64,000 nt of DNA from Aetokthonos hydrillicola CCALA 1050 (GCF_017591665.1 NZ_JAAKGC010000030.1:19483-83482); one strand, 5' to 3'. Positions 1 to 16,517 are shown, counted from the first letter of the stretch. Made by a program: numbers and translations. The notes: generated by a model not told the origin, from the letters alone.

Positions 1-249
1 TTCGTCAAAGTAATTTATAGATTAGCAGATGCATGGAAGAGGACCCTTCCATCAGTCATTTTTTATAAACTAAGGAAGAAACCTAGAGATGAATCTACGT
101 TTCCTTGGTAACCTGATTGTATTGCCATAACATCTGTTGAAGAGACAACCAGATTATTGCAGCTGCTGCAACGAATAAGGCAATAGTATCATCGTTCAAT
201 AACTTGATCAGATATTATAAGTCCTGTACGGTTTAGATTTTAAGGGAAT

Positions 250-453
250 TCAGAAATTTTGTAACATGGTCATCGACACACTCCGCCAAATCGCTGAAAC
301 CCTATATTTTTGGTTGGAGTGTGTCGATCGCTTATGGGGTAAGGTTTTGATCTCTATGTCTTGCTTGATTTTTGGGAAGTTGTATAATGTTTTTCAGGAG
401 TGTGTCGATTTGTCGTCTGAAACCCTTACACAGTAAGGGCTCCTAGACGAACT
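250..453 (+). promoter_or_regulatory. CRISPR leader for array 1, AT-rich and ~90% identical to the leader of array 2
   Basis: The ~200 bp immediately 5' of the first repeat is near-identical to the reverse complement of 11391-11590, which lies between cas2 and array 2. It contains repeated gtgtgtcgat motifs. Confidence 0.75.
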
Positions 454-2081
454 CCCTACCGACTGGGTTAAATCGGATTAGTTGGAAACCAGGAACAAGG
501 TTAATGCCCCTATTATTCAAGCCCTACCGACTGGGTTAAATCGGATTAGTTGGAAACAAATTACGCTACCATAGACTTGATGTGCGCTTGATTAACCCTA
601 CCGACTGGGTTAAATCGGATTAGTTGGAAACTAGTGCAATCTGTGGTCAGTCAGTACTGGCCTAAAGCCCTACCGACTGGGTTAAATCGGATTAGTTGGA
701 AACCATAATTCCCCCACGCTCCATTTCCATTGTTCGGAAACCCTACCGACTGGGTTAAATCGGATTAGTTGGAAACGACTGCTAAATCAATCAAGACGAT
801 CCGGCGACCAGGTTTCCCTACCGACTGGGTTAAATCGGATTAGTTGGAAACTCTCATTCACTCTTGTATTGGCTATTCTTGCACTTAACCCTACCGACTG
901 GGTTAAATCGGATTAGTTGGAAACATCATATTCGGTCACTATGAATTTTTGGGGATAATCCCTACCGACTGGGTTAAATCGGATTAGTTGGAAACTTCTA
1001 AGACATCATGGGAGATGTCTTATTTTTTTCTCCCTACCGACTGGGTTAAATCGGATTAGTTGGAAACCTTTATTTCTTCTCAGTTTTGTCGTTTCCATCA
1101 CTCCCCTACCGACTGGGTTAAATCGGATTAGTTGGAAACATTAATACCCAGGTGGCAGCTATTGCCAAAAAAAAGCCCTACCGACTGGGTTAAATCGGAT
1201 TAGTTGGAAACCCCAAGTTTCGCCAAGGAATTGGTATCCCCAGGAACCCTACCGACTGGGTTAAATCGGATTAGTTGGAAACAAAAGTTGAAAATTCAGG
1301 AAAGAAACTTTCCCCTACCCTACCGACTGGGTTAAATCGGATTAGTTGGAAACCTGCATCCTGAACCGCGTTCAGAACTGGGTCACCAGCCCTACCGACT
1401 GGGTTAAATCGGATTAGTTGGAAACTGTATGATGGTCGTTTTTCGACAGGAGAAATTAGCGGACCCTACCGACTGGGTTAAATCGGATTAGTTGGAAACG
1501 GTGCATTCGGATAGTTCCTCTTTGGTGAGGAAACCCTACCGACTGGGTTAAATCGGATTAGTTGGAAACAATTTATCAGAAGAATTTCCCCAAGCGCCAC
1601 CACCCCCCTACCGACTGGGTTAAATCGGATTAGTTGGAAACTTCCACTGCTCAAAAGGTTCCCAGTCGTTTAGTTTGAAAACCCTACCGACTGGGTTAAA
1701 TCGGATTAGTTGGAAACATTCTGCAAATCGCCCACTTTTGCTGTTGGATTCGCAGTCAACCCTACCGACTGGGTTAAATCGGATTAGTTGGAAACGTTGG
1801 GTTGCGTCTTGCGGCCTTACATTCGGCAACTTCCCTACCGACTGGGTTAAATCGGATTAGTTGGAAACGAGGGGGCTGTGGTTTAGGGATAATGAAATAT
1901 CCAAACCCTACCGACTGGGTTAAATCGGATTAGTTGGAAACTTGCGGGTTTGCATTGCAATTTCCTGTGCCATCCCTACCGACTGGGTTAAATCGGATTA
2001 GTTGGAAACTTATCTTCAACATTTGCAACAAAAGCTATCGCAACTCCCTACCGACTGGGTTAAATCGGATTAGTTGGAAAC
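454..2081 (+). CRISPR. CRISPR array 1: 23 copies of a 36-nt repeat CCCTACCGACTGGGTTAAATCGGATTAGTTGGAAAC with 22 unique spacers of ~32-40 nt
   Basis: Perfectly conserved direct repeats with a period of ~70-75 nt and unique spacers, read directly from the sequence. The small ORFs called inside it (LPTGLNRISWK peptides) are repeat artefacts. Confidence 0.97.
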
Positions 2082-2115
2082 CATTTTGGTCATTGTTAAG
2101 AATATCCCTAAATCC

Positions 2116-2538
2116 TTAAAAAGACCAAGGATTAATGATTACAACCCCTGTTGAGGCAAAATCTTTTTCGTTACGCGTGACAAGTGATAGAGAGTTATGA
2201 AGTGCGATGGCTGCAATGAGAGAATCCATTGCGGGTAGAGATCGCCCCGAAAATTCTAGTTGCCCAACTAAGTTTCCCCACAACACCATTGTTGAGAAAT
2301 CAATACTTAAAATTCTGTTTTCAAAGCGTAGCGGTAGTGTTTCATTTAACCAAGTTGTTAGAGATTCTTTGCGGTTAGATGCAGTCATTTTGCTAATACC
2401 TTTAGCGATTTCGCCAATTGTGATGACGCTTAGATAAAGTGTTTCTGGCACTTGGGCATCTAGCCAATCTAAAACTTGTTGATTTGGTTGTTTGGCAATC
2501 AGTTCGGAAATCAAGCAAGTATCAAGGAGGTAGCTCAT
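2116..2538 (-). CDS. vapC: PIN-domain toxin, VapC family
   Basis: 140 aa. The N-terminus MSYLLDTCLISEL carries an acidic residue typical of PIN domains. It overlaps the upstream small gene by 4 nt (ATGA), the usual toxin-antitoxin arrangement. Confidence 0.75.
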   Translation of the reverse strand: MSYLLDTCLISELIAKQPNQQVLDWLDAQVPETLYLSVITIGEIAKGISKMTASNRKESLTTWLNETLPLRFENRILSIDFSTMVLWGNLVGQLEFSGRSLPAMDSLIAAIALHNSLSLVTRNEKDFASTGVVIINPWSF

Positions 2539-2762
2539 GGGGTGAAGCTATCACGGGCTTGACTGAGATCTCGGCTTAGGTCTAATTCTGAACTGACTTC
2601 AGCTAGGGGGGATTGACGGAAAAACTCTGAGAGTTTGGTGGTTTGTTCTGGGTAGGAGTTGTTATTCTGTGTGGTCAGGCTTTGGGCGAGTAGTTGGATA
2701 ATGTACAGCTTATCGTTAGCTGAGAGATTCAGGAGTTGTTGTTCGAGTTCTGGGATAACCAT
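2535..2762 (-). CDS. Small antitoxin-like protein paired with VapC
   Basis: 75 aa, translationally coupled upstream of the PIN gene. Its N-terminal PELEQQLLNLS...IIQLL pattern recurs in a second small orphan ORF at 34006-34176. Confidence 0.55.
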   Translation of the reverse strand: MVIPELEQQLLNLSANDKLYIIQLLAQSLTTQNNNSYPEQTTKLSEFFRQSPLAEVSSELDLSRDLSQARDSFTP

Positions 2763-3151
2763 ACTGGGGGTTAAGTTGAGGATAAATTTATTTTACTTTC
2801 CGCATCAGGGATCATCGTTTAATTTGCCGCCAGGCTAGAGTATCCGCCGAGATAATTGCACTCAGGGTTGTGTTATTGCGAAGCTGTAACGCACCTTGAA
2901 TTTGTGGCGGTGCGCCGCTTGACGACAACACAACAGCAATATTGGGAGAGGAAAATCCACACCCCAATTTGCCTCCCCTAAGTTAATATTTCTTAACATA
3001 GTTTGAAATATTAACGCCGACTTACTTAAGCGATCGCCTCCAGGTGATCGCTGTTTATTTGGGAGAATAGCTGATAGGTAAAAGCGTCTTCCACCCATAG
3101 GTTTTAATAGAAAACAAGAAAACAAAAACCCAAAACGAAGGGTAAAAGAGC

Positions 3152-3724
3152 ATGAGAAATCTTCATCGAGTGATGATTATTGCTGATGGCGATAACGCTT
3201 TTATGGCTGCGCATAATTTTAATCGCAAAATAGATTGGTGTAAGATGCGGGACTATTTAGCTGACCCAAAAGAAGGGAGAGAGTTAATTGAAATGGTGAT
3301 TTATATCGGTTTACCTCCTGCAAAAGAAAGATTTGAGGAACAGCGAAAAAGTAAAGAAAAATTTATTTATTGGGCAAAGAGTAATGGTTTTTTAGTTGTT
3401 GCTAGAGAAGGTAAAGCTAAGGGTGAAGATTATGAAAGCAATGTTGATGTTGTCATGGCAATTGATGCGATTCAGTTAGCTTTAGAAGTAAAACCAGATA
3501 TTGTAGTTTTAGTAACTGGAGATTCTGATTTCGCTTATTTAGCAGAGAAATTGAGAAGACGAGGAATAAGAGTTGAAGTAGCTTCAGTTGAACAATCTTT
3601 AGGGAGTGAGTTGAAAATTGCAGCTAATAGCATAGTGGATTTAAGTGAGGTTTTTGATAAATTTGCGCAACATGATGTCAACGAAAATTATCATCGTATA
3701 GGCAGTTCCACCGTCTTTGATTGA
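3152..3724 (+). CDS. NYN/LabA-like (PIN-fold) ribonuclease domain protein
   Basis: 190 aa. The IIADGDN...VVLVTGDSDF acidic motifs are characteristic of the NYN/LabA (DUF88) family. Confidence 0.65.
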   Translation: MRNLHRVMIIADGDNAFMAAHNFNRKIDWCKMRDYLADPKEGRELIEMVIYIGLPPAKERFEEQRKSKEKFIYWAKSNGFLVVAREGKAKGEDYESNVDVVMAIDAIQLALEVKPDIVVLVTGDSDFAYLAEKLRRRGIRVEVASVEQSLGSELKIAANSIVDLSEVFDKFAQHDVNENYHRIGSSTVFD

Positions 3725-3768
3725 TGAAATCATAGTACTGCAAACAACGAAAAATAAAAGGGTTTTTT

Positions 3769-4173
3769 ATGAAAACAGTCAATGGAAAGTTAATCAATCA
3801 AGAACAAATTCAGTGTGATAAATTGACCCATATGACGGAGGAAATTACCCAACGCTGTGATTATTTAGAATCTGAATATCTACAGAAGATAAATCAAGAA
3901 ATTGATAATACAAAATCTTGTCTTGAAAAGCTAGAGCAAAAAATCTGCTTTTTGGAGGATGTAACATTCAAACAAGCTAAGCAGTTGTCATTTCTTAAAA
4001 TAATGAGTGTTATTGGTCTACTTGGCTTGTTCTTTATATTTGGCATAAACCATCAACCGCAAAATGAAAGTATTAAACCGCATAAAAAGCAGTCAAAATA
4101 CACCACCGATAAAGAGATGGTGTTTCAAGAAAAGTTTCAATTTCTGTCTCGTCCACAGAGGATGAGCTTTTAA
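3769..4173 (+). CDS. Hypothetical coiled-coil protein with a C-terminal transmembrane helix
   Basis: 134 aa with a hydrophobic stretch IMSVIGLLGLFFIFGI. The 3' end overlaps a locally repeated DNA segment (4092-4130 resembles 4450-4486), so the C-terminus is uncertain. Confidence 0.35.
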   Translation: MKTVNGKLINQEQIQCDKLTHMTEEITQRCDYLESEYLQKINQEIDNTKSCLEKLEQKICFLEDVTFKQAKQLSFLKIMSVIGLLGLFFIFGINHQPQNESIKPHKKQSKYTTDKEMVFQEKFQFLSRPQRMSF

Positions 4174-4217
4174 ACAAGTATTTATTCTGACTCCTGATAA
4201 AAAATCGAGGAAATAAA

Positions 4218-4415
4218 ATGAGAGCAATTGTCAATGGTAAATTGGTTGATTTACCACAAGGTACAACAGTCGAAGAATTACGAAAAAAAATGCCAGAAAT
4301 TGGTCAAGATGATGTGATGGAAGAAAGTTTTAGTGGTACTCGTCCTTTGAAGAGTAATGAAGCACTAAAAGAAGGTTCAAAAATTTGGACTATGCCAAAA
4401 ATTGTGAAAGGGTAA
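4218..4415 (+). CDS. Ubiquitin-like beta-grasp protein (ThiS/MoaD-like), candidate Ubl of a Bil/Bub-type system, ending in a single glycine
   Basis: 65 aa. The MRAIVNGKLVDLPQGTTVEEL...LKEGSKIWTMPKIVKG* pattern matches ThiS/MoaD with a C-terminal Gly. There is a GAGGA ribosome-binding site, and the gene lies immediately upstream of the E2-like and JAB-E1 genes. Confidence 0.6.
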   Translation: MRAIVNGKLVDLPQGTTVEELRKKMPEIGQDDVMEESFSGTRPLKSNEALKEGSKIWTMPKIVKG

Positions 4416-4630
4416 TAAAAAGGAGTCAGGAGTCAGAATACAGGAGGCAGAATACACCAACCATAAAGGGATGGCGTTTTAGCACTCCTGAATCAACCCC
4501 TCCGCAGAGTAACGAGTAGACAAGGTAGTTCATTCTGACTCCTGACTCCTGACTCCTGAATTCTTCTTCGATTTTTGTTTATCCAATAATCTAGGTTCAG
4601 TTTCTGAGTGTTGAATGAAGAGGGTGAAGT

Positions 4631-5116
4631 ATGGCAGTTACAATTAGCCAAGAAAAATCGGGATTTAAACCCAGCGCGCGAATTATACAAGAACTCAAAT
4701 TGTTAGAAAAAGTAGCCAAAAATGTAATTGTTGGTAGCAAAACAGTAAGTCAGACAAAATACACGGCTATTCTGATTAAGGGGATGCCATTATCTTCTAG
4801 AAAGTTTAAAGTTTCCAACACAGATGTTTTGTTTTTATTACCACCAAATTATCCTCAGCTTCCTCCTATTGGCTGCTATCTAAATTATCCATGGAGTACT
4901 GTAGGAGAAGGAGACCATCACTTCACTAGACAAAGCTACTATGGAGCACCATTTTTGAGTGAAGAAGGATGGTATTGGTACTGTGTTGGATTAGGTGGAG
5001 GATTTAACCATGAAGTGTGGTTAAATTCTTGGAGACCTAGCCATAATCCAGAAAAAGGTCATAATCTTTCTACTTTGTTTGTGACAGCACGCCACGCAAT
5101 TAATAGTGACGAATAG
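4631..5116 (+). CDS. E2-like (UBC-fold) ubiquitin-conjugating enzyme homologue
   Basis: 161 aa. LLPPNYPQLPPIGC matches the E2 signature FPxxYPxxPP followed by Cys. The gene sits between the Ubl and the JAB-E1 gene. Confidence 0.55.
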   Translation: MAVTISQEKSGFKPSARIIQELKLLEKVAKNVIVGSKTVSQTKYTAILIKGMPLSSRKFKVSNTDVLFLLPPNYPQLPPIGCYLNYPWSTVGEGDHHFTRQSYYGAPFLSEEGWYWYCVGLGGGFNHEVWLNSWRPSHNPEKGHNLSTLFVTARHAINSDE

Positions 5117-5130
5117 GAAATTTAAAAATC

Positions 5131-6573
5131 ATGAATAAACCTTCTACAATTTCTGTGCATGTGGCACCAAAAATGTGGTCTGAGTTTCGAGAATCTATGG
5201 TTCAGTCTCGGATGTTTAATGAGGAAGTTATTGGTTTTTTATTTTGTCAGCGTCATCAAGTTTCTAAAAGGAAATTCCGATATATTCCTAAAACTTGGGT
5301 CGTTCCTGCTTCTGATTGCTATGAACATCAATCAGCTAGTGGGTTAGTTTTAAAACAGCATTTTCATTCTTATCTGTTAGAAAATCATCTTCAACCTGGT
5401 ATGGATGTAGTTCACATCCACACCCATACAAGTCCAAATTTTCCAGACTTTTCGTATGTTGACGACCGTTATGAATCTGAATATGCAAGATTTATTGCGT
5501 CTCATTTTCCTAAAAAACCTCGTTTGATTTCCGGGGTGTTTGACGAAAATCTAAAATATGGTCAATTTCGGATTTGGGATAGGAAAGGGCAGAAATTTGA
5601 AAATGTTCAATTCTACAATTCGTTATTTATGGTCTCTAACCCTGAAGAGAACATGAAAAATACAAATTTTATGTTTGCTCGCCAAAAAATATTTGGTGAA
5701 GCCAATCAAAACGTTTTGAATCAGCTAAAAGTTGGACTTATTGGGTGTGGTGGAATTGGTTCAATTTTTGCAGAATTATTAGGACGTTTGGGTGTGAAAA
5801 ATTGGGTATTAATTGATCCAGATCAATTGGAGACAGTTAATCTCAATCGAATGCCTGGTGCTACACAAGAAATGGTAGACCAACAATGGTATAAAGTACA
5901 TTATGTCAAGCATCTAATCAAAAAAATTTACCATCAGGGTTCTTGTGTCAAAACAATATCAACTACAGTTGAAAGCGAATCAGCCAAGCAAGAAATCGCA
6001 AGCTGTGATTTAGTAGTGGTAGCGACTGACAATCATCTTTCTCGTAAAACTGCTCAAGAATTAGCCTTGCAGTATATGCGTCCTTTGGTGTGTTTAGGAA
6101 CTCATATAGATCTGAAATCAGATCATACACCGCGCATGTATTGCAGAATTACCGTTCCTCCTTTGGGAGGTGGTTGGTGTTTGATGTGCGGTAATATTAT
6201 CAACCTGCAACGTGCAGCCTTAGAGTCTGCACCTTTAGAGATTAACAAGATGGCTGCAAGTGCTGGTTATTTAGAAGGAGTGAATGACCCAGCCGTATTT
6301 TGGTTAAATAGTATTTGTGCAAGTACAGGTGTTGGTGTCATTCATGGGATGATCAGCGGTTTTTTAAATGTTGATTCTGGGATTGATTGGATTTATGAGT
6401 TTCCCGTTAGTGATTGGCGTAAGACGAATATAGAGTATTTGCACAATGACGATTGTTACTTTTGCGGGCTTAATAATTCCGAGGAAGTCGAAACCTCCGA
6501 AAATTCAGATTTTATAAAGAAGAATTCAGGAGTCAGGAGTCAGGAGTCAGAATACATCCGCTACCTAGAATAA
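5131..6573 (+). CDS. JAB/JAMM deubiquitinase fused to an E1-like (ThiF/MoeB-type) activating enzyme
   Basis: 480 aa. The N-terminal HIHTHTSPNFPDFSYVDD is a JAMM-like HxH...S..D metal site. The central LIGCGGIGS...DPDQLETVNLNRM is the ThiF/E1 Rossmann and adenylation motif. Two CxxC pairs follow (CLMCGN, CYFCGL). The last ~15 aa are encoded by STRR heptamers. Confidence 0.85.
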   Translation: MNKPSTISVHVAPKMWSEFRESMVQSRMFNEEVIGFLFCQRHQVSKRKFRYIPKTWVVPASDCYEHQSASGLVLKQHFHSYLLENHLQPGMDVVHIHTHTSPNFPDFSYVDDRYESEYARFIASHFPKKPRLISGVFDENLKYGQFRIWDRKGQKFENVQFYNSLFMVSNPEENMKNTNFMFARQKIFGEANQNVLNQLKVGLIGCGGIGSIFAELLGRLGVKNWVLIDPDQLETVNLNRMPGATQEMVDQQWYKVHYVKHLIKKIYHQGSCVKTISTTVESESAKQEIASCDLVVVATDNHLSRKTAQELALQYMRPLVCLGTHIDLKSDHTPRMYCRITVPPLGGGWCLMCGNIINLQRAALESAPLEINKMAASAGYLEGVNDPAVFWLNSICASTGVGVIHGMISGFLNVDSGIDWIYEFPVSDWRKTNIEYLHNDDCYFCGLNNSEEVETSENSDFIKKNSGVRSQESEYIRYLE

Positions 6574-6820
6574 ATAGCAACTACTACTCTTTTAAGTTAA
6601 ACGTAGGTTGGGTTGAGGAACGTAGACGCCCCTAGCGGCTTCCCGCAGGGTAACCCAACATTTTTAGGATTTTGTTGGGTTTCGCTGTCGCTCTACCCAA
6701 CCTACAATTATCCTTAACCGAACCGTATTGCATTCGCCCCTACATATCGTACCTGTATCATGCTTTTCTTGAAAGTGATAACTGATAACTGTTCACTATT
6801 AAAATATCCAGGGAGATGTT

Positions 6821-7852
6821 ATGAAATTTAGAAATGCTAAAGGCAATCTGGCTGTTATTTTTCTCATGACTTTATTTTGCTTAAGTGTTTTTAGTTATGG
6901 AGTATACGCAAGCTATTACGGATTGCTATTATTTCAGCAAGGAGCTTTTAATTTTATTATCGGTCTGTTCTTTTTGGTTTGTATTGGTATCCCTAGTATT
7001 TACTGGGTGCTCACAACCATGTACAGATATTTTGCTGCTGTACCTTCTTATGTTAATCAAAGAAAAATACGAGTTATTAACCCTCTTTTAGTACACGAGA
7101 AAGGATTATATTCTGAAACTGAAAAATGGTTATGTACGAGGGTTAAAGAGTTAGCTCAAGCAGAAGGATTACCCAAAACTCCAGTAGTAGGAATTGAATT
7201 ATGTGATGACAATCCTAATGCTTATGCAGTGGGTGCAACTCGTTCTTATGCGATGGTTGTTGCTACTACTGGTTTAATCAAACAATTAAGTCACAGAGAA
7301 GTTGCTGCGGTGATGGCGCATGAATTAGGACATATTGCGAATCTAGATACGATGGCAAAAACTCTTCTTTCCGCTGCTTTGGATGGTGTGATGCTAATAC
7401 TTTTTACGCCAATGTTGCTGATTGTTTGGTATTTTGGGAGATTTGTGGCTTTATTAATGCTGGCTGCAGGTGTAATTTATGGTCTGATGGGTAATTGGCA
7501 GCACGCAACAGGCTTTTTTGTGGGTGTATTGGTTTGGATTCTTTTAATGATGTTGCCGATGATAACAAAGTTCTTGGTTACATTATTGACTTTTTGGCAC
7601 AGTCGTTGGCGCGAATATCACGCTGATGCGGTTGCAGCTAGGTTAACGAGCGTTGATGATATGGTATCAGCCTTGGTAAGGCTTGACCGTTTACCTTTCG
7701 AACCACCGAAAAAAAATAAAGAACAAATGGCTACTTTATGGATTCGAGTGGCGATGACTCAAGAAACAGGTGTGTTTCACTGGTTAAAGCATACACACCC
7801 ACCTATTCACAAAAGAATTGAAGCTTTAAGACGTGGATTTTATTTGAGATGA
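6821..7852 (+). CDS. M48 family zinc metalloprotease (HtpX-like), integral membrane
   Basis: 343 aa with the HELGH zinc motif (VMAHELGHIANLD) and several hydrophobic helices. Confidence 0.85.
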   Translation: MKFRNAKGNLAVIFLMTLFCLSVFSYGVYASYYGLLLFQQGAFNFIIGLFFLVCIGIPSIYWVLTTMYRYFAAVPSYVNQRKIRVINPLLVHEKGLYSETEKWLCTRVKELAQAEGLPKTPVVGIELCDDNPNAYAVGATRSYAMVVATTGLIKQLSHREVAAVMAHELGHIANLDTMAKTLLSAALDGVMLILFTPMLLIVWYFGRFVALLMLAAGVIYGLMGNWQHATGFFVGVLVWILLMMLPMITKFLVTLLTFWHSRWREYHADAVAARLTSVDDMVSALVRLDRLPFEPPKKNKEQMATLWIRVAMTQETGVFHWLKHTHPPIHKRIEALRRGFYLR

Positions 7853-7923
7853 TTGCTTGTGGAAATGGCATTTCTCTCAATTGTAATAGTAAACCCTGTT
7901 CAAAAATATACTAAAACTAAAGT

Positions 7924-8913
7924 ATGTACAGCTATCATATTGAGTTAAACGGTGAAGTGTTGCACGTTGGATTTAATCGTAATCTTCCGTCTCAGGGCGA
8001 TCGCATAGTCCGAGATGCGCTAGAAGTCGTAAGCCAAAAAATTGATTCTGGGGAAATTACAGGAGGTAAACGTATTTTAATTGACGGACCACAATCTGTT
8101 CCTGTTGCTTACGTGCTTTCTCACAAACTTGCGCATTTATACCAAGTCGTCGCAATTTTAGATCCCAAACTTGGTAGTAAAGTAAGTACACCAAATGGTG
8201 CTATTAGACACAAAACTTATATCGTCACCTCTGTACATGGTTCCGCAGAATATCAAGTCGGTGATTTGATCGAAACAACTGAATCTCAGAAAGAGCGATC
8301 GCTGATCAAAGTTGTTTTGTGCGGTCCTGCAAAGTCAGGAAAATCCTGTTTGCGAGATGGTTTAAAAAGAGCTATTTTAGGCAGATTAGGTGCACCTTAT
8401 CCTTATGTCATCACCGCTTGTCCAGATGGGGAAGGCTCTTGGCATCAAGAAGCTTATGAAAACAATCAGTCAGCAGCGAAGGATTATAAGTATAATAATA
8501 AAGCAGATTTTACACCTGAGTTTGCACAACAAGCTGCTAAATGGGTACAGGGTGCAAACCAGTTAATCAATATTATTGATGTTGGTGGTAAAACTTCTCC
8601 AGAAAATAAAATAATAATGAAAGAAGCAACCCACGCTGTCATTTTGTCAGGAGATGTAAACAAATTTCCTGAATGGGAAGTTTTCTGCCAAGAATTAAAT
8701 CTTAAAATCGTTGCCAAGATTCACAGCCAATTACATGGCGTTCAAGATGAGGTTATGCAAGCTGATAATTGGCAAGAACAAACGAACGAATTGTTAGAAA
8801 CCGCCCCATTACTAACAGGTAGCGTACATCGATTAGAACGTGGAGAAAATGTATCAGATCGTCCAATGGTCAAAGCATTGGCTGATGTGTTGAAACATTT
8901 AACAAAGTGTTAA
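7924..8913 (+). CDS. Hypothetical P-loop (GPAKSGKS) protein with an internal tandem duplication; speculatively a Csx3-like CRISPR accessory protein
   Basis: 329 aa. LIDGPQSVPVAYVLSHKLAHL (first half) parallels VLCGPAKSGKSCLRDGLKRAI (second half, Walker-A-like). It lies adjacent to the array 2 trailer. Confidence 0.4.
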   Translation: MYSYHIELNGEVLHVGFNRNLPSQGDRIVRDALEVVSQKIDSGEITGGKRILIDGPQSVPVAYVLSHKLAHLYQVVAILDPKLGSKVSTPNGAIRHKTYIVTSVHGSAEYQVGDLIETTESQKERSLIKVVLCGPAKSGKSCLRDGLKRAILGRLGAPYPYVITACPDGEGSWHQEAYENNQSAAKDYKYNNKADFTPEFAQQAAKWVQGANQLINIIDVGGKTSPENKIIMKEATHAVILSGDVNKFPEWEVFCQELNLKIVAKIHSQLHGVQDEVMQADNWQEQTNELLETAPLLTGSVHRLERGENVSDRPMVKALADVLKHLTKC

Positions 8914-9094
8914 GTGTTTCAAATCATCTGATTTAACTCTAATTAAAGAGGGTTGAGAAACATAGCGTTACTCAACCTTTGTTTATGCTTTTTAATTGAG
9001 TAAGTACTCATTCATTTTGAGTGAAAAAAATTTCACCACCACGCATGAAAGAGGAATATTCCCTACTCAGAGTTGCCCGAAAGATCCGCCCCAT

Positions 9095-9275
9095 CTGACA
9101 TCTTGCACCCCGGCTGAATCAGCCCGATATCCTGCCCTACACTTAAGTGTAGGGCTAATAGCTTAAGTCCATTGAAATGGACTGAAATCCTTGCTCAGTC
9201 CTCTTGAGAGGACTTTAGCTATCAACAAGCGATTTAAATCGCTGGCTGGCTGACAGCCCAGGTGCAAGATATCAG
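9095..9275 (+). mobile_element. 181-bp MITE copy A with 15-bp terminal inverted repeats CTGAYATCTTGCACC
   Basis: It matches 12127-12307 over its whole length with identical TIRs. Its internal perfect palindrome (GCCCTACACTTAAGTGTAGGGC) differs between copies by compensatory changes. It overlaps the 3' end of the 9272-9904 gene. Confidence 0.8.
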
Positions 9276-9904
9276 CCATGCCCTCTTGACGTTTCTCCCT
9301 GCAAAATCCCAATAATCGTCCGGGTTACAAACTCTAAATCCTGCGGCACTGGATGCAGAGGCAAATACTGTACCACATGATGTGCAGCGCGATCATACAG
9401 ACCAAATCGCCAAATTTCCCCGGTTGAAACTGCACCGTACAAAATAGGACTCTCACTTTCTACCCAGCGATCCAGCGCAATTAATTCAACGGCAAGCTGA
9501 GTAAAGCCTTTGGTCAAGTCCGATTGTTTTGCTTCAATAATCAGAAGATTACTCGGGCTGGGAATATAGTAGTCTAGGGAGCCTTTTAACCAATTGCTCA
9601 CACTAACCGTATACTCAATATTGATTGAATAGTCTAACAGATCGCAAATCCGATCAAGCAACGGAAAAATCAATGCCTCCCGACGAGCCTGTTCAGTGGT
9701 TGTATTCACCCGTTTGAGTCTGCGCCGCATACTGAGTGCAAGTTCAGGCAGCCAATCTAATTCAGACTGCGTGTAAGGGAGATCTTCGCGATCGCTGCGC
9801 TCGATCGTACAGCCCAAATCTGCCAAAATATCTTCCGGTGAGTAAGGCAATTCAAAATACTTGCTAAAGGTGTAGGACTCGTTTGGATCTAAAACCTTGG
9901 GCAT
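9272..9904 (-). CDS. PD-(D/E)xK nuclease-fold protein (probable start at MPKVLDPNES)
   Basis: DYYIPSPSNLLIIEAKQSD matches the D...(D/E)xK core. A GAGGAG ribosome-binding site lies 10 nt upstream of the ATG at 9904. The longer ORF reaching 10075 would overlap the neighbouring gene. The last codons fall inside the MITE TIR. Confidence 0.55.
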   Translation of the reverse strand: MPKVLDPNESYTFSKYFELPYSPEDILADLGCTIERSDREDLPYTQSELDWLPELALSMRRRLKRVNTTTEQARREALIFPLLDRICDLLDYSINIEYTVSVSNWLKGSLDYYIPSPSNLLIIEAKQSDLTKGFTQLAVELIALDRWVESESPILYGAVSTGEIWRFGLYDRAAHHVVQYLPLHPVPQDLEFVTRTIIGILQGETSRGHG

Positions 9905-10058
9905 GGTGTCGATCTCCTCACTGAAACAGTATACCCATTCTATCGAAGCTCCTAACTTTTCACAGTAATTAAAGCAGGAAGCCCATGAAGACAAGGTTAT
10001 TCTAGATTTAGAACAACCTTGTCTGTTATGCGCGACATGGGAGGAAGGCGACGCGACT

Positions 10059-10259
10059 TTAGTCGCCGTCAACACTCTTTTCGACTAATAATATTAGTTG
10101 ACGCCCCCATCTCTCCATTAATTCACTAGCGCTAATACCTTGTTGTTTTGCGGTTTCGGTAATCCCTTTCCATGCAGTATCAGTTAATCTGGTGGCACGA
10201 GGTTTTTTGATTTCGTCATAAAGAACTGGTATATTTCGTGTTCTTTTTACTCCTTTCAT
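10059..10259 (-). CDS. Small ribbon-helix-helix (CopG/Arc-like) DNA-binding protein
   Basis: 66 aa. KKPRATRLTDTAWKGITETAKQQGISASELMERW fits a beta-strand plus two helices RHH pattern. It is abutted by a 27-bp inverted repeat. Confidence 0.4.
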   Translation of the reverse strand: MKGVKRTRNIPVLYDEIKKPRATRLTDTAWKGITETAKQQGISASELMERWGRQLILLVEKSVDGD

Positions 10260-10261
10260 AT

Positions 10262-10459: not shown

Positions 10460-10497
10460 GGGAAATAATTTTTTCTCTAACATGTCGCAGTTCGCTG

Positions 10498-11390
10498 GTT
10501 TCCAACTAATCCGATTTAACCCAATCGGTAGGGCTAAATTACCTGAATTCAATCGTATGGGTGTGCTCGTTTCCAACTAATCCGATTTAACCCAATCGGT
10601 AGGGCATGCATGTGAAGGAGAACGCAAATGCTCTTATTACTGTTTCCAACTAATCCGATTTAACCCAATCGGTAGGGCAACTGAACCATTAGCTCGTGCT
10701 AATGTCAGTAAAGGTTGTTTCCAACTAATCCGATTTAACCCAATCGGTAGGGTGGTGGTTCTAACTGGCCTCATCCTGATCTTTACAGGTTTCCAACTAA
10801 TCCGATTTAACCCAATCGGTAGGGGGCACTTCAAGAATGACCCAACGCAGATTTCTAGCGTTTCCAACTAATCCGATTTAACCCAATCGGTAGGGTTCTA
10901 TCCGGGATAACTGGCGGGACTTACCTCCTTTAGTTTCCAACTAATCCGATTTAACCCAATCGGTAGGGATAAAAAAGCACGAACAGAAGAAAAAATCAGG
11001 TTTCCAACTAATCCGATTTAACCCAATCGGTAGGGTTGGTTTTTTGCATAACAGTGCAATTGCAGACCAGAGTTTCCAACTAATCCGATTTAACCCAATC
11101 GGTAGGGCGCTTTCAAAAAGTGTTGTCCACGCGATTTTATGTTTCCAACTAATCCGATTTAACCCAATCGGTAGGGTCAATGGGTGAAAAATCCCAGCGG
11201 TGCGGTTGTTGTTTCCAACTAATCCGATTTAACCCAATCGGTAGGGGTAAGACGACTGTCTTTCTCTAATCCAGAAAGATTATGGTTTCCAACTAATCCG
11301 ATTTAACCCAATCGGTAGGGACCCGACTATTATTCCCATGGAACTTTCAGGGAAGTTTCCAACTAATCCGATTTAACCCAATCGGTAGGG
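10498..11390 (-). CRISPR. CRISPR array 2: 13 copies of the repeat GTTTCCAACTAATCCGATTTAACCCAATCGGTAGGG (one A/G difference from array 1) with 12 spacers; leader and cas2 on the high-coordinate side
   Basis: Direct repeats with unique spacers read from the sequence. Orientation is set by the adjacent leader and cas2. Confidence 0.97.
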
Positions 11391-11608: not shown

Positions 11609-11884
11609 CTAGATCACGTAATACTTTGGCGGTGTCGTTGGTTCTTCACTACCAATAGTTAAGACCCTAGAAACAGCTTCTTGTGAAACCCAGTAAAAGC
11701 GGACATTATCCTCAGATGGTTTCACCAATTTCTTCGATTTTTCAAAAAGTTGCCGCATTTCCTCCAAGCTTAAAAAACATTCAAACACAGAAAACTGCAC
11801 CCTTCGGCCGTAACCCTCTAGAAAATTGGATAACTTCGTACGTCTCTTATCATCAGGAATATCATACACAACGACCACTAACAT
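11609..11884 (-). CDS. cas2: CRISPR-associated endoribonuclease Cas2
   Basis: 91 aa. MLVVVVYDIPDDKRRTKLSNFLEGYGRRVQFSVFEC is the canonical Cas2 N-terminus. It is directly leader-proximal. Confidence 0.92.
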   Translation of the reverse strand: MLVVVVYDIPDDKRRTKLSNFLEGYGRRVQFSVFECFLSLEEMRQLFEKSKKLVKPSEDNVRFYWVSQEAVSRVLTIGSEEPTTPPKYYVI

Positions 11885-12126
11885 GTTTATTAGTAAGAAT
11901 TAATACTTCATAAAAGTATAGATTTTTTTACTTTTTAATACAAATTAAGTAATTATACAAAATCTGATTCATTGAAAAATGAAGTTTTCAAAGGGTTTCA
12001 GATAGAAACAAAGTCTCTTCTCCTAAGATGCACATTTTAGAATGCCTGTATAGCAAGGGTTTTAGAACTCCCGAAAAATGTGCTTCTTTCATATGTTGCT
12101 AGCACCATTTTGGCGCTAGTTGGAGG

Positions 12127-12307
12127 CTGACATCTTGCACCATTCTCAATCAGCCCGATATCCCGCCCAGAACTGAAGTTCTGGGCTAATAGCGCGCATT
12201 CCATTGAAATGGACTGAGGTTCTTGAGCAGTCCTCTTGAGAGGACTTTAGCTATCAGACAGCGATTTAAATCGCTGGCTGGCTGACAACCTAGGTGCAAG
12301 ATATCAG
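12127..12307 (+). mobile_element. 181-bp MITE copy B, same family and same orientation as copy A
   Basis: Same TIRs (CTGACATCTTGCACC ... GGTGCAAGATATCAG). The internal palindrome GCCCAGAACTGAAGTTCTGGGC differs from copy A by compensatory changes. It lies in the intergenic region between cas2 and RT-cas1. Confidence 0.8.
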
Positions 12308-12329
12308 TCTTCCCCCTTAAGGTGATTTC

Positions 12330-12445
12330 CGAGAAAGAAAATACCTGGGGAGTGCGAGTTTCGGCTTCGCTCAACTCAAGGTTTCGACTTCGCTCAACTC
12401 ACGATCTCTCAGTTGGTTGAGCGAAGTCGAAACCAACGGCGACGG
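12330..12445. repeat. Small hairpin repeat element (GTTTCGACTTCGCTCAAC ... GTTGAGCGAAGTCGAAAC); a second copy is inverted at 47276-47365
   Basis: The two loci share ~90 bp with an internal inverted repeat. Confidence 0.7.
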
Positions 12446-12467
12446 TATATTTATTCCTGTAAATCAC

Positions 12468-14642
12468 CTAAGCTGCTCTTAAAAAAGATTCATAGGGAGT
12501 CCCTGATAATAAATAGCGTTTATACCGCCTTACCTGTAATTGAATTACATGTCTATATGTAGCTGCAGAAATTAAATCTGGGTGAGAAACTTCTTCATTC
12601 ATCCGGCTTTCAAATTGTTTAAGAAACACTTTCCGTGCAGACTGGCTTAAATATACACCTCCCGTACTCGCAACTAGATCAAAATCATTTGGTTTAAATT
12701 CATTATTATTAATCACCTTCAAAACCAAACTATCAACAATAGGAGAGCGAAACTCTTCCATCAAATCAAAAGCTAAATATGGCTTGCACTTTTCACCATA
12801 ATGAAAATTACCTATATACGGTGAAATACCTTCAGCAATAATAAAACTCAACACGTTGTTGAACAAAAGCGTATAACCAAAACTCAACAACGAATTCACT
12901 TCATCAATAGGGGGTTGACGAAATCGCTGGGAAAAACTGAAAGCCGAATTGGTAATTAACTTACCAAAAGCCGGAAAATATCTCGCAGCAGCAATACCTT
13001 CATAACCGCGCAATGTATCTAAATTGTCTACATATTCCACAGCGTTAATATCTTGATTAATACCATAAATAGCCTTTTCCAAATCTTCTATTTTGCGTCT
13101 ACGATTAAATCGCATTAACAACTGCTTAGAATTCATTAACTTACCTAAAACAATCGCTTTAGATACGTTATATTGAAAATAATCATCATTGCGTCTCTCT
13201 ATTTGTATTAGATGTGTTTCAAAATTAATAGATTCTTCACTCCACAGATGACCGTGGTATTGTCCAGATTGGCTCAGAAATAATACAGGAATTTGCTCTT
13301 CCAAACAGGCATTAATTACAGGAGTCGATAATTGAATATTACCAAACACTATAATTTGTTGTACTTCTCGAATCGGTACTTCTAGTTTAGGCTTTTCTGA
13401 AACATGAATAATAAAACGTTGATAATCCTTATAGATTGAAGTTCCTTGTTCAATAAGGTAAATAGCTGCCATTTCTTGACTCCAAATATTTTTTTGAAAA
13501 AGGCTGTTTTCATTATCTTGTTGCTCATTAGTAGATGATTCTATCTCTACCTCTGCTAGATAGGGTTGATGTAAATAAGCAATATTACTAGAAACTACCC
13601 CCCCAACCTCATTCTGATTCTCTTGTAATAAAGACTGACTTTCTAATTCTCTTTGCTCATAACCTTGAGGTTCTTCCTGTTTTTTTTTAGTTTGTTTTTT
13701 TACTTGCTTTTCCTCTATCCCCGACTTTAACTTAACTGTGTTTGCATCAACCGGAAAAATCGCATTTTCTATAAAACCATGACCTAAAAACCGAAAACCA
13801 CGGTTAAAATTAGTAATTTGAGTTTTTTCCGTATTTATCGTCAAACCCATTGAATCCAACAAATTGACAATTTCTAATTGAGCTAATAAAATTCTTTCTT
13901 GACTGTGGGATAAAACCACAAAATCGTCCGCATAACGCACAAGTTTTAAATCTGTTGCGCTAACTAACTCATCAAATTCATGTAGATAAATATTCGCAAG
14001 TAAGGGAGAAACTACCGCACCTTGAGGGATCCCTTTTTGTGGCAATATCAATCCTTCTAATGTTAACATTCCGACAGATATCCAAGATTTAATTAAACAT
14101 AAAATTCCCGAATTATCTATATGTAATCTTACTTCTTTTAATAACCTGAAATGGTCAATATTATCGAAAAATTTTGCAATATCCGCATCAAAGACCCATA
14201 CATAACCCATATCTCGCCAATCAGCAATTTTCTCCACAGCATTGATATAAGATAAATTAGGGCGATAGGCAAAACTAACAGGCAAAAATTTTTCTTCAAA
14301 TACTGGATTTAGTACATTTAATAACGCCTGCTGGACAATTCTATCTCGAACTGTTGGTATTTTTAACTCCCTTTGCTTACCATTTTTTTTGGGAATAACC
14401 ACCTGTTTATATGGCTGAGGTTCATAAGTGCTATTAGCAACAGCACGAAGTAATTGATAAATATTCACAGTTTGATTAGAAGCAAAGCTATCAATTGTTT
14501 CTCCATCTATCCCCGCACCACCCCTGTTTCCAGCAACCTTTTCCCAAGCACGTTGAAAGTTATTTATATCCAGGAATTGGCTAATAATATCTGTCATAAA
14601 ATCTCCCACAGTAAAATGAAAATTTGTAACCTTTTTGAACAA
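12468..14642 (-). CDS. cas1: Reverse transcriptase-Cas1 fusion (RT-Cas1), the type III-associated adaptation enzyme
   Basis: 724 aa. The N-terminal half has group-II-intron-like RT motifs (AGIDGETIDSF, FDADIAKFFDNIDH, IPQGAVVSPLLANIYL, YADDFVVL). The C-terminal half is Cas1-like (IREVQQIIVFGNIQLSTPVINACLEEQIPVLFL ...). The exact start is uncertain (M at 14642 or internal MTDII). Confidence 0.9.
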   Translation of the reverse strand: MFKKVTNFHFTVGDFMTDIISQFLDINNFQRAWEKVAGNRGGAGIDGETIDSFASNQTVNIYQLLRAVANSTYEPQPYKQVVIPKKNGKQRELKIPTVRDRIVQQALLNVLNPVFEEKFLPVSFAYRPNLSYINAVEKIADWRDMGYVWVFDADIAKFFDNIDHFRLLKEVRLHIDNSGILCLIKSWISVGMLTLEGLILPQKGIPQGAVVSPLLANIYLHEFDELVSATDLKLVRYADDFVVLSHSQERILLAQLEIVNLLDSMGLTINTEKTQITNFNRGFRFLGHGFIENAIFPVDANTVKLKSGIEEKQVKKQTKKKQEEPQGYEQRELESQSLLQENQNEVGGVVSSNIAYLHQPYLAEVEIESSTNEQQDNENSLFQKNIWSQEMAAIYLIEQGTSIYKDYQRFIIHVSEKPKLEVPIREVQQIIVFGNIQLSTPVINACLEEQIPVLFLSQSGQYHGHLWSEESINFETHLIQIERRNDDYFQYNVSKAIVLGKLMNSKQLLMRFNRRRKIEDLEKAIYGINQDINAVEYVDNLDTLRGYEGIAAARYFPAFGKLITNSAFSFSQRFRQPPIDEVNSLLSFGYTLLFNNVLSFIIAEGISPYIGNFHYGEKCKPYLAFDLMEEFRSPIVDSLVLKVINNNEFKPNDFDLVASTGGVYLSQSARKVFLKQFESRMNEEVSHPDLISAATYRHVIQLQVRRYKRYLLSGTPYESFLRAA

Positions 14643-14699
14643 CGTAATCAGAAAGAGTTTTCTAGAAAATTCCTATTTGATATTTCAAATTTAAAACCT

Positions 14700-15032
14700 T
14701 GTCTATGAGTCGATAAGACAGACAATAGGTAGGTTGGGTTGAGGGACGAAACCCAACATTTTTAGATTTTTGTTGGGTTTCACTTCGTACCCCTACGGGG
14801 AAGCAAGCTACAACCCAACCCAATACTGCTCGGTTAAGCCGAAAATTTAAATTTAATCTAGGTTGGGTTGAGGAACGAAACCCAACATTTATAAGGATTT
14901 GTTGGGTAACGCTTATGCGCTCTACCCAACCTACGATTTTCCAAAACCCCGTGCAGTATTGCAGCCCAACCTACTACTGTATGGTTTTATGAGTCGTTTA
15001 TTCTGACTCCTGACTCCTGACTTCTGACTCCT
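14700..15032. repeat. Cluster of dispersed palindromic 'gttgggtt/aacccaac' repeats plus STRR heptamers (CTGACTC)n
   Basis: Several copies of aggttgggttgagg..aacccaacat units. Related copies occur at 6600-6700, 33770-33850, 50100-50450, 54890-54990 and 56640-56790. Confidence 0.8.
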
Positions 15033-15035
15033 TTT

Positions 15036-16517
15036 TTATCTATAAAGCTGATAAGTAGCTTCCATATCTTCTTTCATACGCTGTCGTAAACTCCAAGGTA
15101 AAATTACTTCAACATTTTGTCCCCAAGCTCTGAGACGCATAACGATATTATTATCGTCTTGGCGATAATAAATTTTGCGGTAAACACTGTTTTTATTGGA
15201 ATTCAATTTTGAAAATAAATATTGTTGTTCTGGGAATGAAGAAGTGTTATTTTTTATTAAAAATTCAACTTGCTTTTGAGAAATTTTTGTAAACATTTCA
15301 TCTCGTTCAGTTCCTTGGATATTATTAGCGTAAAAATACTGATTAAATCTTAAAACAAGTAATTCCGGTGGCTTGTGGATATCAAATCCCCAAGCTGATA
15401 ACATTTCATCTTTAATATCTTGAGGACTCGGGGGATATTTACCCCAACATTTAGTTATAAAGCTTTTAGGAATATTGCTATTGCTTAAATCTGTTGGCAA
15501 TTCATCTAATTTAAGAATGCGATCAAGTCGATAATCGTACCAGTTAATTTCATTCCAACTATGTTCACTATCTCTTTGTGGTGTTTGACCGTAAGCAAAT
15601 AAATAAAAGCCACGTTGGTAGTAGTAAATACAAACGGGATAAACAATACAAGTAACTGTATCTTGATATAGTTTTGCACTCTTGTATGTTAATTTTATGA
15701 ATGAAGTTTTATCTTTTGACCAAATTTGTTTCAATTGCTTTTGTAATAATTTTACATGAATGTATAGTTGTGGATGTACTATATATTCTGTATGTATAAA
15801 GAACCTTTGAATCCCATTAATTGGCTTAGATAAGGAGTTATTGAGTGCAGATAATTCTTCATGTGTAAATTGCTTACTCGTAGCTCCTAGATTTTCAACA
15901 CAATCCCAGAAAATTTGTGGTATTTTTTTTACTTTTACATACTTATCTTGATTATCTACTTTTTTTATATTTAACCAGCCAAGATTAACTAATGTCCGAA
16001 AATCATAGTCTTTTAAATTACGACAAGTTACAGCAAATAACCTTCCATCAGGTATGGTTTTAGAAAAGCCGTGATATTTTTGACTATTCTGATTATCAGA
16101 TGAGTCTTGATCTGTGTTGTTAATGCTTCCAGTCAATAGTAAATTTTCTAACTCATCAGATTCAATAGAATAATACTTATGAAATGACTGACACCATTTA
16201 TTTTTTTCAATGCTTAGATTTGATGTAAATAACCACTCACTTAATTTTCTCGCACATCGGCATTCTTCATGGTGTAAAGTAGGAACATTATCGCGTGCAT
16301 GATGCTTTGTCGCATCCTGAAAGAATAAATCTCTCCATTGCAGAAAACTAAATTCTTCTTCTAACTCCAATGTTGCTTCATTATTATCACCTCCGTATAT
16401 AGAATGTAAAATTACCCACAGCCTTATCGCTTTTACTAAGTTTTGTTTCAGAGAACCAGGTACAAGTAGCTTTAAAACTTCTACACTAGGAGGATATTTA
16501 AAAATGTCTCTCGTCAT
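15036..16517 (-). CDS. WYL-domain protein, a putative CRISPR-associated regulator or accessory protein
   Basis: 493 aa. QRGFYLFAYGQ...WYDYRLDRILKL matches the WYL-domain core (xWYLvAY ... FRLDRI). It lies immediately upstream of RT-cas1 on the same strand. Confidence 0.55.
   Translation of the reverse strand: MTRDIFKYPPSVEVLKLLVPGSLKQNLVKAIRLWVILHSIYGGDNNEATLELEEEFSFLQWRDLFFQDATKHHARDNVPTLHHEECRCARKLSEWLFTSNLSIEKNKWCQSFHKYYSIESDELENLLLTGSINNTDQDSSDNQNSQKYHGFSKTIPDGRLFAVTCRNLKDYDFRTLVNLGWLNIKKVDNQDKYVKVKKIPQIFWDCVENLGATSKQFTHEELSALNNSLSKPINGIQRFFIHTEYIVHPQLYIHVKLLQKQLKQIWSKDKTSFIKLTYKSAKLYQDTVTCIVYPVCIYYYQRGFYLFAYGQTPQRDSEHSWNEINWYDYRLDRILKLDELPTDLSNSNIPKSFITKCWGKYPPSPQDIKDEMLSAWGFDIHKPPELLVLRFNQYFYANNIQGTERDEMFTKISQKQVEFLIKNNTSSFPEQQYLFSKLNSNKNSVYRKIYYRQDDNNIVMRLRAWGQNVEVILPWSLRQRMKEDMEATYQLYR

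Follow-up and report, generated by a model that had tools for sequence, protein, structure and literature searches.

A predicted Bub-like ubiquitin-like conjugation cassette with an NYN ribonuclease partner in cyanobacterial type III-B CRISPR loci

The window analysed here is a 64,000-nucleotide stretch of DNA from Aetokthonos hydrillicola CCALA 1050 (NZ_JAAKGC010000030.1:19483-83482). At 3152-6573 it carries a cassette of five closely spaced genes on the + strand, which encode an NYN ribonuclease, a small membrane protein, a ubiquitin-like protein (Ubl), an E2-like protein with a ubiquitin-conjugating (UBC) fold and a fusion of a JAB/JAMM peptidase with a ThiF-type E1 domain. The features of the cassette are as follows.

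3152..3724, + strand: NYN ribonuclease (LabA-like, PIN-fold) of 190 aa, encoded first in the cassette (Pfam, PADLOC)
3769..4173, + strand: small single-pass membrane protein, 134 aa (PADLOC PDLC01177 'CorA-like')
4218..4415, + strand: Ubl, 65 aa, C-terminal PKIVKG followed by a stop codon (Pfam ThiS-like, model)
4423..4560, no strand: inverted-repeat insertion resembling a miniature inverted-repeat transposable element, with GGAGTCA heptamers (sequence, RNA fold)
4631..5116, + strand: UBC-fold E2, 161 aa, BubB-like (Prok-E2_E)
5131..6573, + strand: JAB/JAMM-E1 (ThiF-type) fusion, 480 aa, BubCD-like (ThiF, BubCD in the PDB)

An earlier reading of the window, made from its sequence alone (the sequence-only reading), had described a Ubl/E2/JAB-E1 conjugation operon of the 6E/Bub class, and the open reading frames (ORFs), the Pfam matches and the match to BubCD in the PDB bear this out. 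The three conjugation genes and the NYN gene that it named are present on the same strand, but the cassette has five genes, the membrane-protein gene having been overlooked. The profile searches that it proposed matched ThiS-like (below threshold), Prok-E2_E, ThiF and, over both JAB and E1, BubCD. The main reference system is Type I Bub (formerly 6E.1/DUF6527), which comprises BubAB, BubCD and BubE and was characterised by Ye, Gong, Chambers and Corbett (2024; bioRxiv 10.1101/2024.11.21.623953). Judged by its protein families and conserved residues, the biochemical identity of the cassette is well supported: it is predicted to be a Bub-like pathway that has a thiol E2, substitutes an NYN protein for the DUF6527 protease, and includes an additional membrane protein.

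Scanning one genome per species revealed about 200 genomes with a relative of the cassette, and the locus statistics below come from the best 80. These are all labelled cyanobacteria except one metagenome-assembled genome, labelled Acetobacteraceae. The order NYN, membrane protein, Ubl, E2, JAB-E1 on one strand is kept throughout about 80 genomes, which places the cassette far beyond chance. When the ORFs of the 80 loci were clustered, only the five cassette families were near-universal. The complete plasmid of Microcystis aeruginosa NIES-2481 shows the same layout, and its Ubl, E2 and membrane protein are annotated 'hypothetical protein' in RefSeq. NCBIfam holds no specific family for any of these three proteins.

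In the JAB-E1 fusion, the JAB domain spans approximately residues 1–170 and the E1 adenylation domain approximately residues 185–450. The protein matches ThiF at 7.7e-28, and its best PDB match (phmmer) is Citrobacter BubCD (3.7e-14, residues 22–399), covering both domains. The JAMM residues E32, H97, H99, S108 and D111 are invariant, even in a relative of 28% identity. Meanwhile, the E1 invariants down to 28% identity are the GxGGxG loop, R240 (the adenylation arginine in NLNR) and G379-Y380-L381. Two CxxC pairs (350/353 and 442/445) are also invariant and form a zinc site of the MoeB/UBA5 type; they contain the only conserved cysteines of the E1 domain. As in Type I Bub, the JAB/JAMM domain lies N-terminal to a ThiF-type E1 domain whose crossover loop is free of cysteine and carries an invariant tyrosine. 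This residue, Y380 in 'AGYLEGV', aligns with Y370 in 'RGYITGV' of BubCD, which is essential and has been proposed as an oxyester nucleophile (Ye et al., 2024; bioRxiv 10.1101/2024.11.21.623953). The 'CGG' that had been put forward as an E1 active-site cysteine belongs to the GxGGxG nucleotide loop. We also discarded C396 as the nucleophile, since it is lost in a distant relative.

The E2 scores 26.5 bits against Prok-E2_E, for which the cut-off is 25. Among 35 sequences down to 21% identity, Y74, P75, G81, W114, W116, C118, W134 and P136 are invariant and H97 is nearly so. Cys118, in the motif WYWYC, and His97 are the candidate catalytic residues, and this UBC-fold protein thus appears to place a catalytic cysteine after an HPN-type histidine. 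The E2 of Type I Bub has a catalytic serine, a histidine at position +2 and an upstream aspartate. We aligned the cassette E2 by hhalign with BubAB of Pseudanabaena PCC 7367, a genuine Bub operon with DUF6527 adjoining, at a probability of 97.6% (E 4e-12). In contrast to the Bub residues, C118 falls on the serine of 'WSRH' (S-x-H), a glycine occupies the +2 position, and Ile80 stands at the aspartate of 'PPD'. MAFFT alignment with the E2s of three genuine Bub operons gave the same placement of C118 on the serine for two, and the third requires a small shift. Since C118 sits on the Bub serine, the protein can be read as a thiol version of the Bub E2, with Cys118 as its candidate nucleophile. 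The sequence-only reading had taken the PP-Cys signature as catalytic. That cysteine, C82, is conserved in the close clade only and is replaced by F, V or I elsewhere, and the family-wide invariant cysteine is C118. A profile of the close clade gave no meaningful match in the PDB, and matches appeared only once distant relatives were added.

The 65-aa Ubl had been described as a ThiS-like β-grasp protein ending in glycine. The glycine is there (PKIVKG-stop), and the fold comes from modelling, as the Pfam ThiS-like match (7e-4) stays under the gathering score. A Ubl profile gave no significant match in the PDB (ThiS at E 0.38). In an AlphaFold2 (AF2) model of a naturally occurring fusion between Ubl and E2, the Ubl portion reached a pLDDT (predicted local distance difference test) of 76–87 and showed a β-β-α-β-β-β topology. 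In this model, which was built on a shallow alignment and later superseded by a run with a diverse one, the E2 core (82–127) had a pLDDT below 50. Foldseek matched the Ubl model to ThiS, TtuB, MoaD and SAMP1 with probabilities of 0.82–1.0, most of them at least 0.92, and E values of 0.02–0.25. With medium confidence, and chiefly on account of the model because the sequence evidence alone is weak, we assign the Ubl a β-grasp fold whose C-terminal glycine may be exposed or exposable.

The C-terminal KG of the Ubl is invariant in 78 loci. The glycine is followed by a stop codon in 44 loci, including the window, by a variable tail of 2–9 aa in 33, or by an in-frame E2. Such in-frame fusions of Ubl and E2 occur in locus L065, in the proteins P0159, P0181, P0191 and P0217, and in most distant relatives. 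An invariant KG with a variable tail or a fused E2 behind it is the classic sequence signature predicted for a peptidase-exposed modifier. In Bub, a fusion of Ubl and E2 is cut after the conserved glycine; in the window the two genes are split, as they are in some genuine Bub operons. They lie 215 nt apart here, and elsewhere the gap is most often 11 nt. The inverted-repeat element at 4423-4560, which lies in this gap, is outside the conserved cassette, and its RNA folds at -72.3 kcal/mol (z = -3.7). We notice that GGAGTCA heptamers also make up the 3' end of the JAB-E1 ORF (6520-6573), giving the protein a lineage-specific tail, SGVRSQESEY....

The NYN gene, which had been placed correctly just upstream of the conjugation genes, matches Pfam NYN (PF01936) at 8.4e-25 with 88.4 bits against a cut-off of 24.2. 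Its product also matches the PADLOC model for CRISPR-linked NYN (1.6e-10) and VPA0982 in the PDB (2qip; 8e-5). In 70 cyanobacterial loci the gene stands upstream of Ubl/E2 as its partner, and across them the motifs ADGDN and VTGDSDF are invariant, which points to a conserved acidic active site and a predicted RNase activity. The NYN protein is an integral and constant partner in the cassette rather than a mere neighbour. One CRISPR-associated NYN has been studied; it is an endonuclease that depends on Mn, cuts single-stranded RNA non-specifically and does not degrade the signalling molecule SAM-AMP (PMC11346440). According to Chi and White (2024; PMC11346440), CRISPR-associated NYN proteins are confined to Bacteroides type III systems. 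NYN genes in the type III-B loci of about 70 cyanobacterial genomes extend the association beyond Bacteroides and correct this view. In 18 loci, a second NYN protein of about 322 aa with a membrane anchor is encoded just upstream of the cassette in divergent orientation, for example at L024:6741-7709(-) and L009:6515-7486(-). It fits the PADLOC CRISPR-linked NYN model over its full length (1.9e-134) and is absent from the window.

Between the NYN and Ubl genes sits the gene of the membrane protein, present in 66 of the 80 loci. This fast-evolving protein consists of a coiled coil and one transmembrane (TM) helix, with an N-terminal TxNGKL motif, and 63 of the 66 members have a single hydrophobic segment. 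Invariance across the family is limited to N5, G6 and K7, and T3 and L8 come close to it. The motif resembles the first hairpin of the Ubl itself, VNGKL (window 3769-3795 and 4218-4247); the codons differ, and therefore the likeness is kept at the protein level. The sole PADLOC model that matches the protein is PDLC01177, a CRISPR-linked 'CorA-like' model of 117 positions (9.7e-35), and Pfam CorA does not match it. We considered and rejected identity with CorA, as a Mg2+ channel or as a CRISPR effector. A second TM helix, a large cytoplasmic domain and a conserved GMN are all missing from the protein, which makes the 'CorA' label unjustified. As guesses, it might supply a lysine that accepts the Ubl, or a docking strand resembling the Ubl through which the conjugation machinery or the NYN protein is brought to the membrane.

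We also compared the genomic contexts of distant relatives with a Cys-type E2. All five whose upstream DNA can be read have an NYN gene there, in one case a gene that is only weakly NYN-like, and two or three of the five stand outside CRISPR loci. The NYN gene is directly upstream in P0243. L086 has the order RT-Cas1 (a fusion of reverse transcriptase, RT, with Cas1), Cas2, unknown gene, NYN, Ubl-E2, JAB-E1. L082 has the order sigma factor, NYN, Ubl-E2, unknown gene, JAB-E1, with no CRISPR. L091 carries a tight NYN / Ubl-E2 / JAB-E1 operon on a relaxase/MobC element, again with no CRISPR, and its NYN protein is 31% identical to that of the window. The weakly NYN-like gene is that of L089. DUF6527 occurs in none of these five. 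On the other hand, three genuine Bub operons fetched as comparators have DUF6527 and a Ser-type E2, and no NYN gene. The relatives thus have NYN and lack DUF6527, Bub has the reverse, and therefore the core of NYN, Ubl/E2(Cys) and JAB-E1 forms a sister type of Bub. What marks the cyanobacterial CRISPR-linked clade is that Ubl and E2 are encoded by split genes and that the membrane protein is present.

Further differences set the cassette apart from Type I Bub. It has no DUF6527 serine protease (BubE), NYN is its constant third partner, and a membrane protein is added. DUF6527 (PF20137) is absent from the families common to the 80 loci and has no Pfam match in the ORFs of the window or in the conserved neighbours. 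The Ubl is a single 65-aa domain, and the cassette stands in type III-B loci, whereas Bub stands behind CapH/CapP. The architecture with its JAB-E1 fusion had been presented as a candidate undescribed variant. However, JAB-E1 fusions together with inactive-looking E2s already define operon type 6e (Iyer 2006, PMC1779556), and BubCD is such a fusion (10.1101/2024.11.21.623953). The placement had likewise been counted towards that candidate variant, and here the supplement of Altae-Tran 2023 (Science, PMC10910872) already lists the gene set as the CRISPR auxiliary candidate UAS-33, which the main text carries in a figure legend only. Matched by description and length, UAS-33 has the same five gene families and the CRISPR association, and its representative gene of 486 nt is the size of the E2 gene. 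The catalogue entry gives a name, 34 loci and a score, without the JAB domain, the 6E/Bub link, catalytic residues or a mechanism. Apart from this entry we found no literature on the mechanism of a CRISPR-linked Ubl, and the cassette is absent from published surveys that cover the accessories and effectors of type III systems. The association of the gene set with CRISPR is thus already catalogued, and the features worked out here are in no source that we found.

The cassette also shares features with further known systems. Like Bil (BilABCD, an antiphage system), it has a Ubl, a Cys E2, a JAB peptidase, an E1 and a defence context. Unlike Bil, which has no NYN, its E1 is a single, minimal homodimer-type domain of about 260 aa fused to JAB, with no Cys domain or catalytic cysteine. 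Type II CBASS has a related E1 (PADLOC E1-E2 models 1.8e-16; Cap2 in the PDB 3e-6), its conjugation is reversed by a JAB peptidase (Cap3), and conjugation there regulates an immune enzyme. However, Cap2 is an E2-E1 fusion, the 'Ubl' of CBASS is the C-terminus of the cyclase itself, and CBASS has no separate Ubl and no NYN. In the Bacteroides fragilis type III-B system (Chi et al., 2023; Chi and White, 2024, PMC11346440), an NYN gene lies beside a 'CorA' gene in an RT-Cas1 locus, as here. The 134-aa protein with its one TM helix differs in lacking the cytoplasmic domain of CorA, a second TM helix and a conserved GMN. B. fragilis has NrN or a SAM-AMP lyase and no Ubl machinery, whereas the present loci carry the cOA-type effectors Csx3, Csx1, CARF-RelE and SAVED-TM.

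The flanks of the cassette in the window, with the remaining features of the locus, are as follows.

454..2081, + strand: CRISPR array 1, 23 repeats of CCCTACCGACTGGGTTAAATCGGATTAGTTGGAAAC (leader-like sequence ~266-450)
2116-2762, - strand: VapBC pair, left flank
6821..7852, + strand: M48/HtpX-like membrane metalloprotease (Pfam Peptidase_M48 8e-29)
7924..8913, + strand: Csx3-AAA, a ring-nuclease-type type III accessory (PADLOC Csx3-AAA 1.6e-111)
9272-10259, - strand: ORFs of 267 aa and 66 aa, both lying between Csx3-AAA and array 2
10498..11390, - strand: CRISPR array 2, 13 repeats, orientation opposite to array 1 (leader-like sequence 11391-11600)
11609-11884, - strand: Cas2 (PADLOC Cas2 7.6e-28)
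12468-14642, - strand: RT-Cas1 fusion (PADLOC Cas1_IIIb 6e-111 and RT 7e-107)
15036-16517, - strand: WYL regulator (PADLOC WYL 1e-132)

The defence-rich context between two CRISPR arrays with VapBC beside the cassette, which the sequence-only reading had pointed out, holds with arrays at 454-2081 and 10498-11390 and VapBC at 2116-2762. The last three genes form an adaptation and regulation module (Cas2, RT-Cas1, WYL) at 11609..16517 on the - strand, to the right of array 2. No Cas10 or Cmr gene occurs anywhere in the 64-kb window.

CRISPR-Cas features of type III-B are present in all 35 loci in which both flanks are long enough. The cassette usually lies between an array and the cmr genes, on the same strand. 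Among the 44 loci with enough upstream flank, 37 have an upstream array and 31 have RT, Cas1 and Cas2. Downstream, PADLOC detects Cas10b (GGDD), Cmr3, Cmr4, Cmr5 and a long Cmr6 in 37 of the 56 loci with enough flank. Accessories of the type linked to cyclic oligoadenylate (cOA) signalling differ between loci and include Csx3-AAA, CARF-RelE, Csx1, SAVED/CARF-TM and TM-NYN.

Pairwise distances of JAB-E1, compared without control for the species tree, correlate with those of E2 (rho 0.79), NYN (0.68), RT (0.87), Cas1 (0.85) and Cas2 (0.67). They are uncorrelated with those of Cmr4, Cmr5 and Cmr6 (rho 0.0–0.07), the Cmr4 distances being near saturation. When both are computed on one and the same set of 19 loci, Cas2 gives a rho of 0.75 and Cmr4 one of 0.11. 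As the distances track RT, Cas1 and Cas2 and not Cmr, the cassette seems to travel with the adaptation and array module while the effector modules are swapped. L010 and L012 give an example of such a swap: JAB-E1 diverges by 8% between them and Cmr4 by 46%, the Cmr modules having been exchanged apart from the cassette and the adaptation genes.

Taken as a whole, the explanation that we prefer is a self-contained, Bub-like Ubl conjugation cassette built around the NYN RNase, which in cyanobacteria would have become a fixed accessory in type III-B(v) CRISPR loci that carry RT-Cas1. We give this explanation about an even chance of being correct (roughly 0.5). Its target, trigger and biological role we infer from gene content and conserved residues. 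Comparison of sequences and structures supports adenylation of Gly65 by the E1 domain; from Ubl-AMP the Ubl would pass to a Tyr380 oxyester, then to a Cys118 thioester and finally to a lysine. Where a tail or an E2 trails the glycine of the Ubl, JAB is predicted, on the strength of the same comparison, to cut it free. A stop codon directly follows Gly65 in the window, and therefore JAB more likely strips the Ubl from conjugates here. The conjugation target is probably within the cassette, and might be the NYN protein itself or Lys7 of the TxNGKL motif in the membrane protein. NYN is the constant partner and the CRISPR-associated NYN studied so far is a non-specific endonuclease of single-stranded RNA, which leads us to regard the RNase as the output and conjugation and deconjugation as the switch. 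Conjugation and removal by JAB could switch either the activity or the membrane location of this RNase. It may work at an RNA step of CRISPR defence, by killing or arresting the infected cell, or by cutting foreign or CRISPR RNA for the RT-Cas1 module or the array. Of these, the preparation of RNA for the array and RT-Cas1 module rather than arrest of cells is favoured by co-inheritance with RT-Cas1, and the operons that occur without CRISPR speak for an effector that was autonomous at first and recruited to CRISPR later.

Several points weigh against this explanation. Gene linkage and one conserved motif are the basis for proposing NYN or the membrane protein as target, alignment and conservation are the basis for Cys118, and the co-inheritance coefficients are to be read with the caveats given beside them. 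Pfam and PADLOC detect no CARF, SAVED or other sensor domain in the cassette, and no cOA-sensing domain. The core triad also occurs without CRISPR, so that the CRISPR link could be co-location only. The authors of the Bub study found no phage protection by the Bub operon (Ye et al., 2024; bioRxiv 10.1101/2024.11.21.623953), and the type III-Bv system of Synechocystis functions without this cassette (PMC6546367).

If the link is only co-location, the cassette could be an independent innate defence system that merely lies inside CRISPR loci as a component of a defence island. It would detect infection by itself, functionally unconnected to type III CRISPR, and the Ubl would tag phage proteins in the manner of Bil or activate NYN. 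We consider this unlikely. It would account for the occurrence of the triad in CRISPR-free surroundings (one of them a relaxase/MobC element, next to a VWA-PP2C-kinase set), for cOA effectors that vary freely while the cassette stays constant, and for a window itself rich in defence genes. Yet the constant position inside a CRISPR locus (35/35), usually in the array-cmr interval, speaks against it. So do a distant relative (41% identity) whose Ubl and E2 are fused and which likewise adjoins RT-Cas1-Cas2, the JAB-E1 distances that track RT, Cas1 and Cas2, and an independent screen that scored the gene set as CRISPR-associated. The same co-inheritance with RT, Cas1 and Cas2 and not with Cmr would suit another possibility, to which we likewise give little credence: that the cassette handles RNA for CRISPR and does not kill, with NYN trimming the 3' ends of CRISPR RNA (crRNA) or making spacer substrates for RT-Cas1, and the Ubl regulating or localising it. 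Both roles have been suggested by Chi and White for the CRISPR-associated NYN of Bacteroides (PMC11346440). The position just downstream of an array in 37 of 44 loci fits, as do the adaptation genes that neighbour the cassette in the window and in L086 with no Cmr within reach. So does the presence of a Cmr1-6 fusion with no Cas6 among the annotated gene families, as in type III-Bv. On the other hand, the triad occurs without an array or RT-Cas1, and it is not obvious why a nuclease that trims would require an E1, an E2 and a deubiquitinase. The crRNA of the Synechocystis type III-Bv system is matured by RNase E in the absence of the cassette (PMC6546367), and the NYN of B. fragilis is dispensable for interference in E. 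coli (PMC11346440).

A role like that of ThiS-ThiF or MoaD-MoeB, in a pathway for sulfur carriage or for a cofactor or metabolite, with JAB as a carrier-processing peptidase and without protein conjugation, is extremely improbable. The E1 is named 'ThiF family adenylyltransferase' (NCBIfam, RefSeq), its best NCBIfam matches are ThiF and MoeB, all under their cut-offs, ThiS-like is the only Pfam match of the Ubl, and the E1 retains the MoeB/ThiF-type zinc site. However, a UBC-fold E2 with an invariant cysteine is never missing, in some cases as a fusion with the Ubl, and the nearest relatives among solved structures, BubCD and BubB, conjugate proteins. ThiS and MoaD end in GG, whereas the Ubl ends in a single KG, and the conserved set contains no rhodanese, cysteine desulfurase, synthase or other sulfur-transfer gene.

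A bolder form of the preferred explanation, which we regard as improbable, joins these elements. A Ubl-gated NYN would cut foreign RNA to feed RT-Cas1 with spacers, a cascade would run from Tyr-oxyester to Cys-thioester, and the membrane protein would serve as acceptor or anchor. If true, Ubl conjugation would be wired into CRISPR memory formation as a hand-over from innate to adaptive immunity, by a previously unseen cascade of mixed chemistry.

An E1 tyrosine paired with an E2 cysteine would be intermediate between thioester and all-oxyester cascades and would bear on the evolution of ubiquitin chemistry. In Bub pathways, conjugation is biochemically proven and the biological role is open. 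The present loci offer a defined and programmable trigger (a target RNA and a type III-B complex) together with a putative RNase output, so that the role of bacterial Ubl conjugation becomes directly testable. The cassette would add a layer of protein modification to type III CRISPR, possibly on its adaptation side.

The M48 peptidase gene is a variable accessory found in 12 of the 80 loci, and a Csx3-AAA gene occurs in 31. In Synechocystis CRISPR3, loss of the peptidase accessory gene slr7088 leads to less crRNA (PMC6546367); its link to the M48 gene of the window is by description only. The 267-aa and 66-aa ORFs at 9272-10259 have no family matches, and L074 and L076 carry weak relatives of the former (28–30% identity) close to the cassette. 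Arrays 1 and 2 share one repeat type, apart from a single base, in inverted orientation, and both face the cassette. Their leaders are similar, as seen from common ORF translations, and within the window cas2 and RT-cas1 adjoin array 2 only. A scan of window positions 1-12000 against Rfam gave no match, and scans for promoters and terminators returned no more sites than in shuffled sequence. Further to the right, the window encodes a 1088-aa protein with a TIR-like domain at its C-terminus (26543-29809), a protein with a PD-T4-6-like kinase domain (31480-33606), a TnpB/Cas12f-like gene (37203-38816) and a 1925-aa caspase-HEAT repeat protein (56859-62636).

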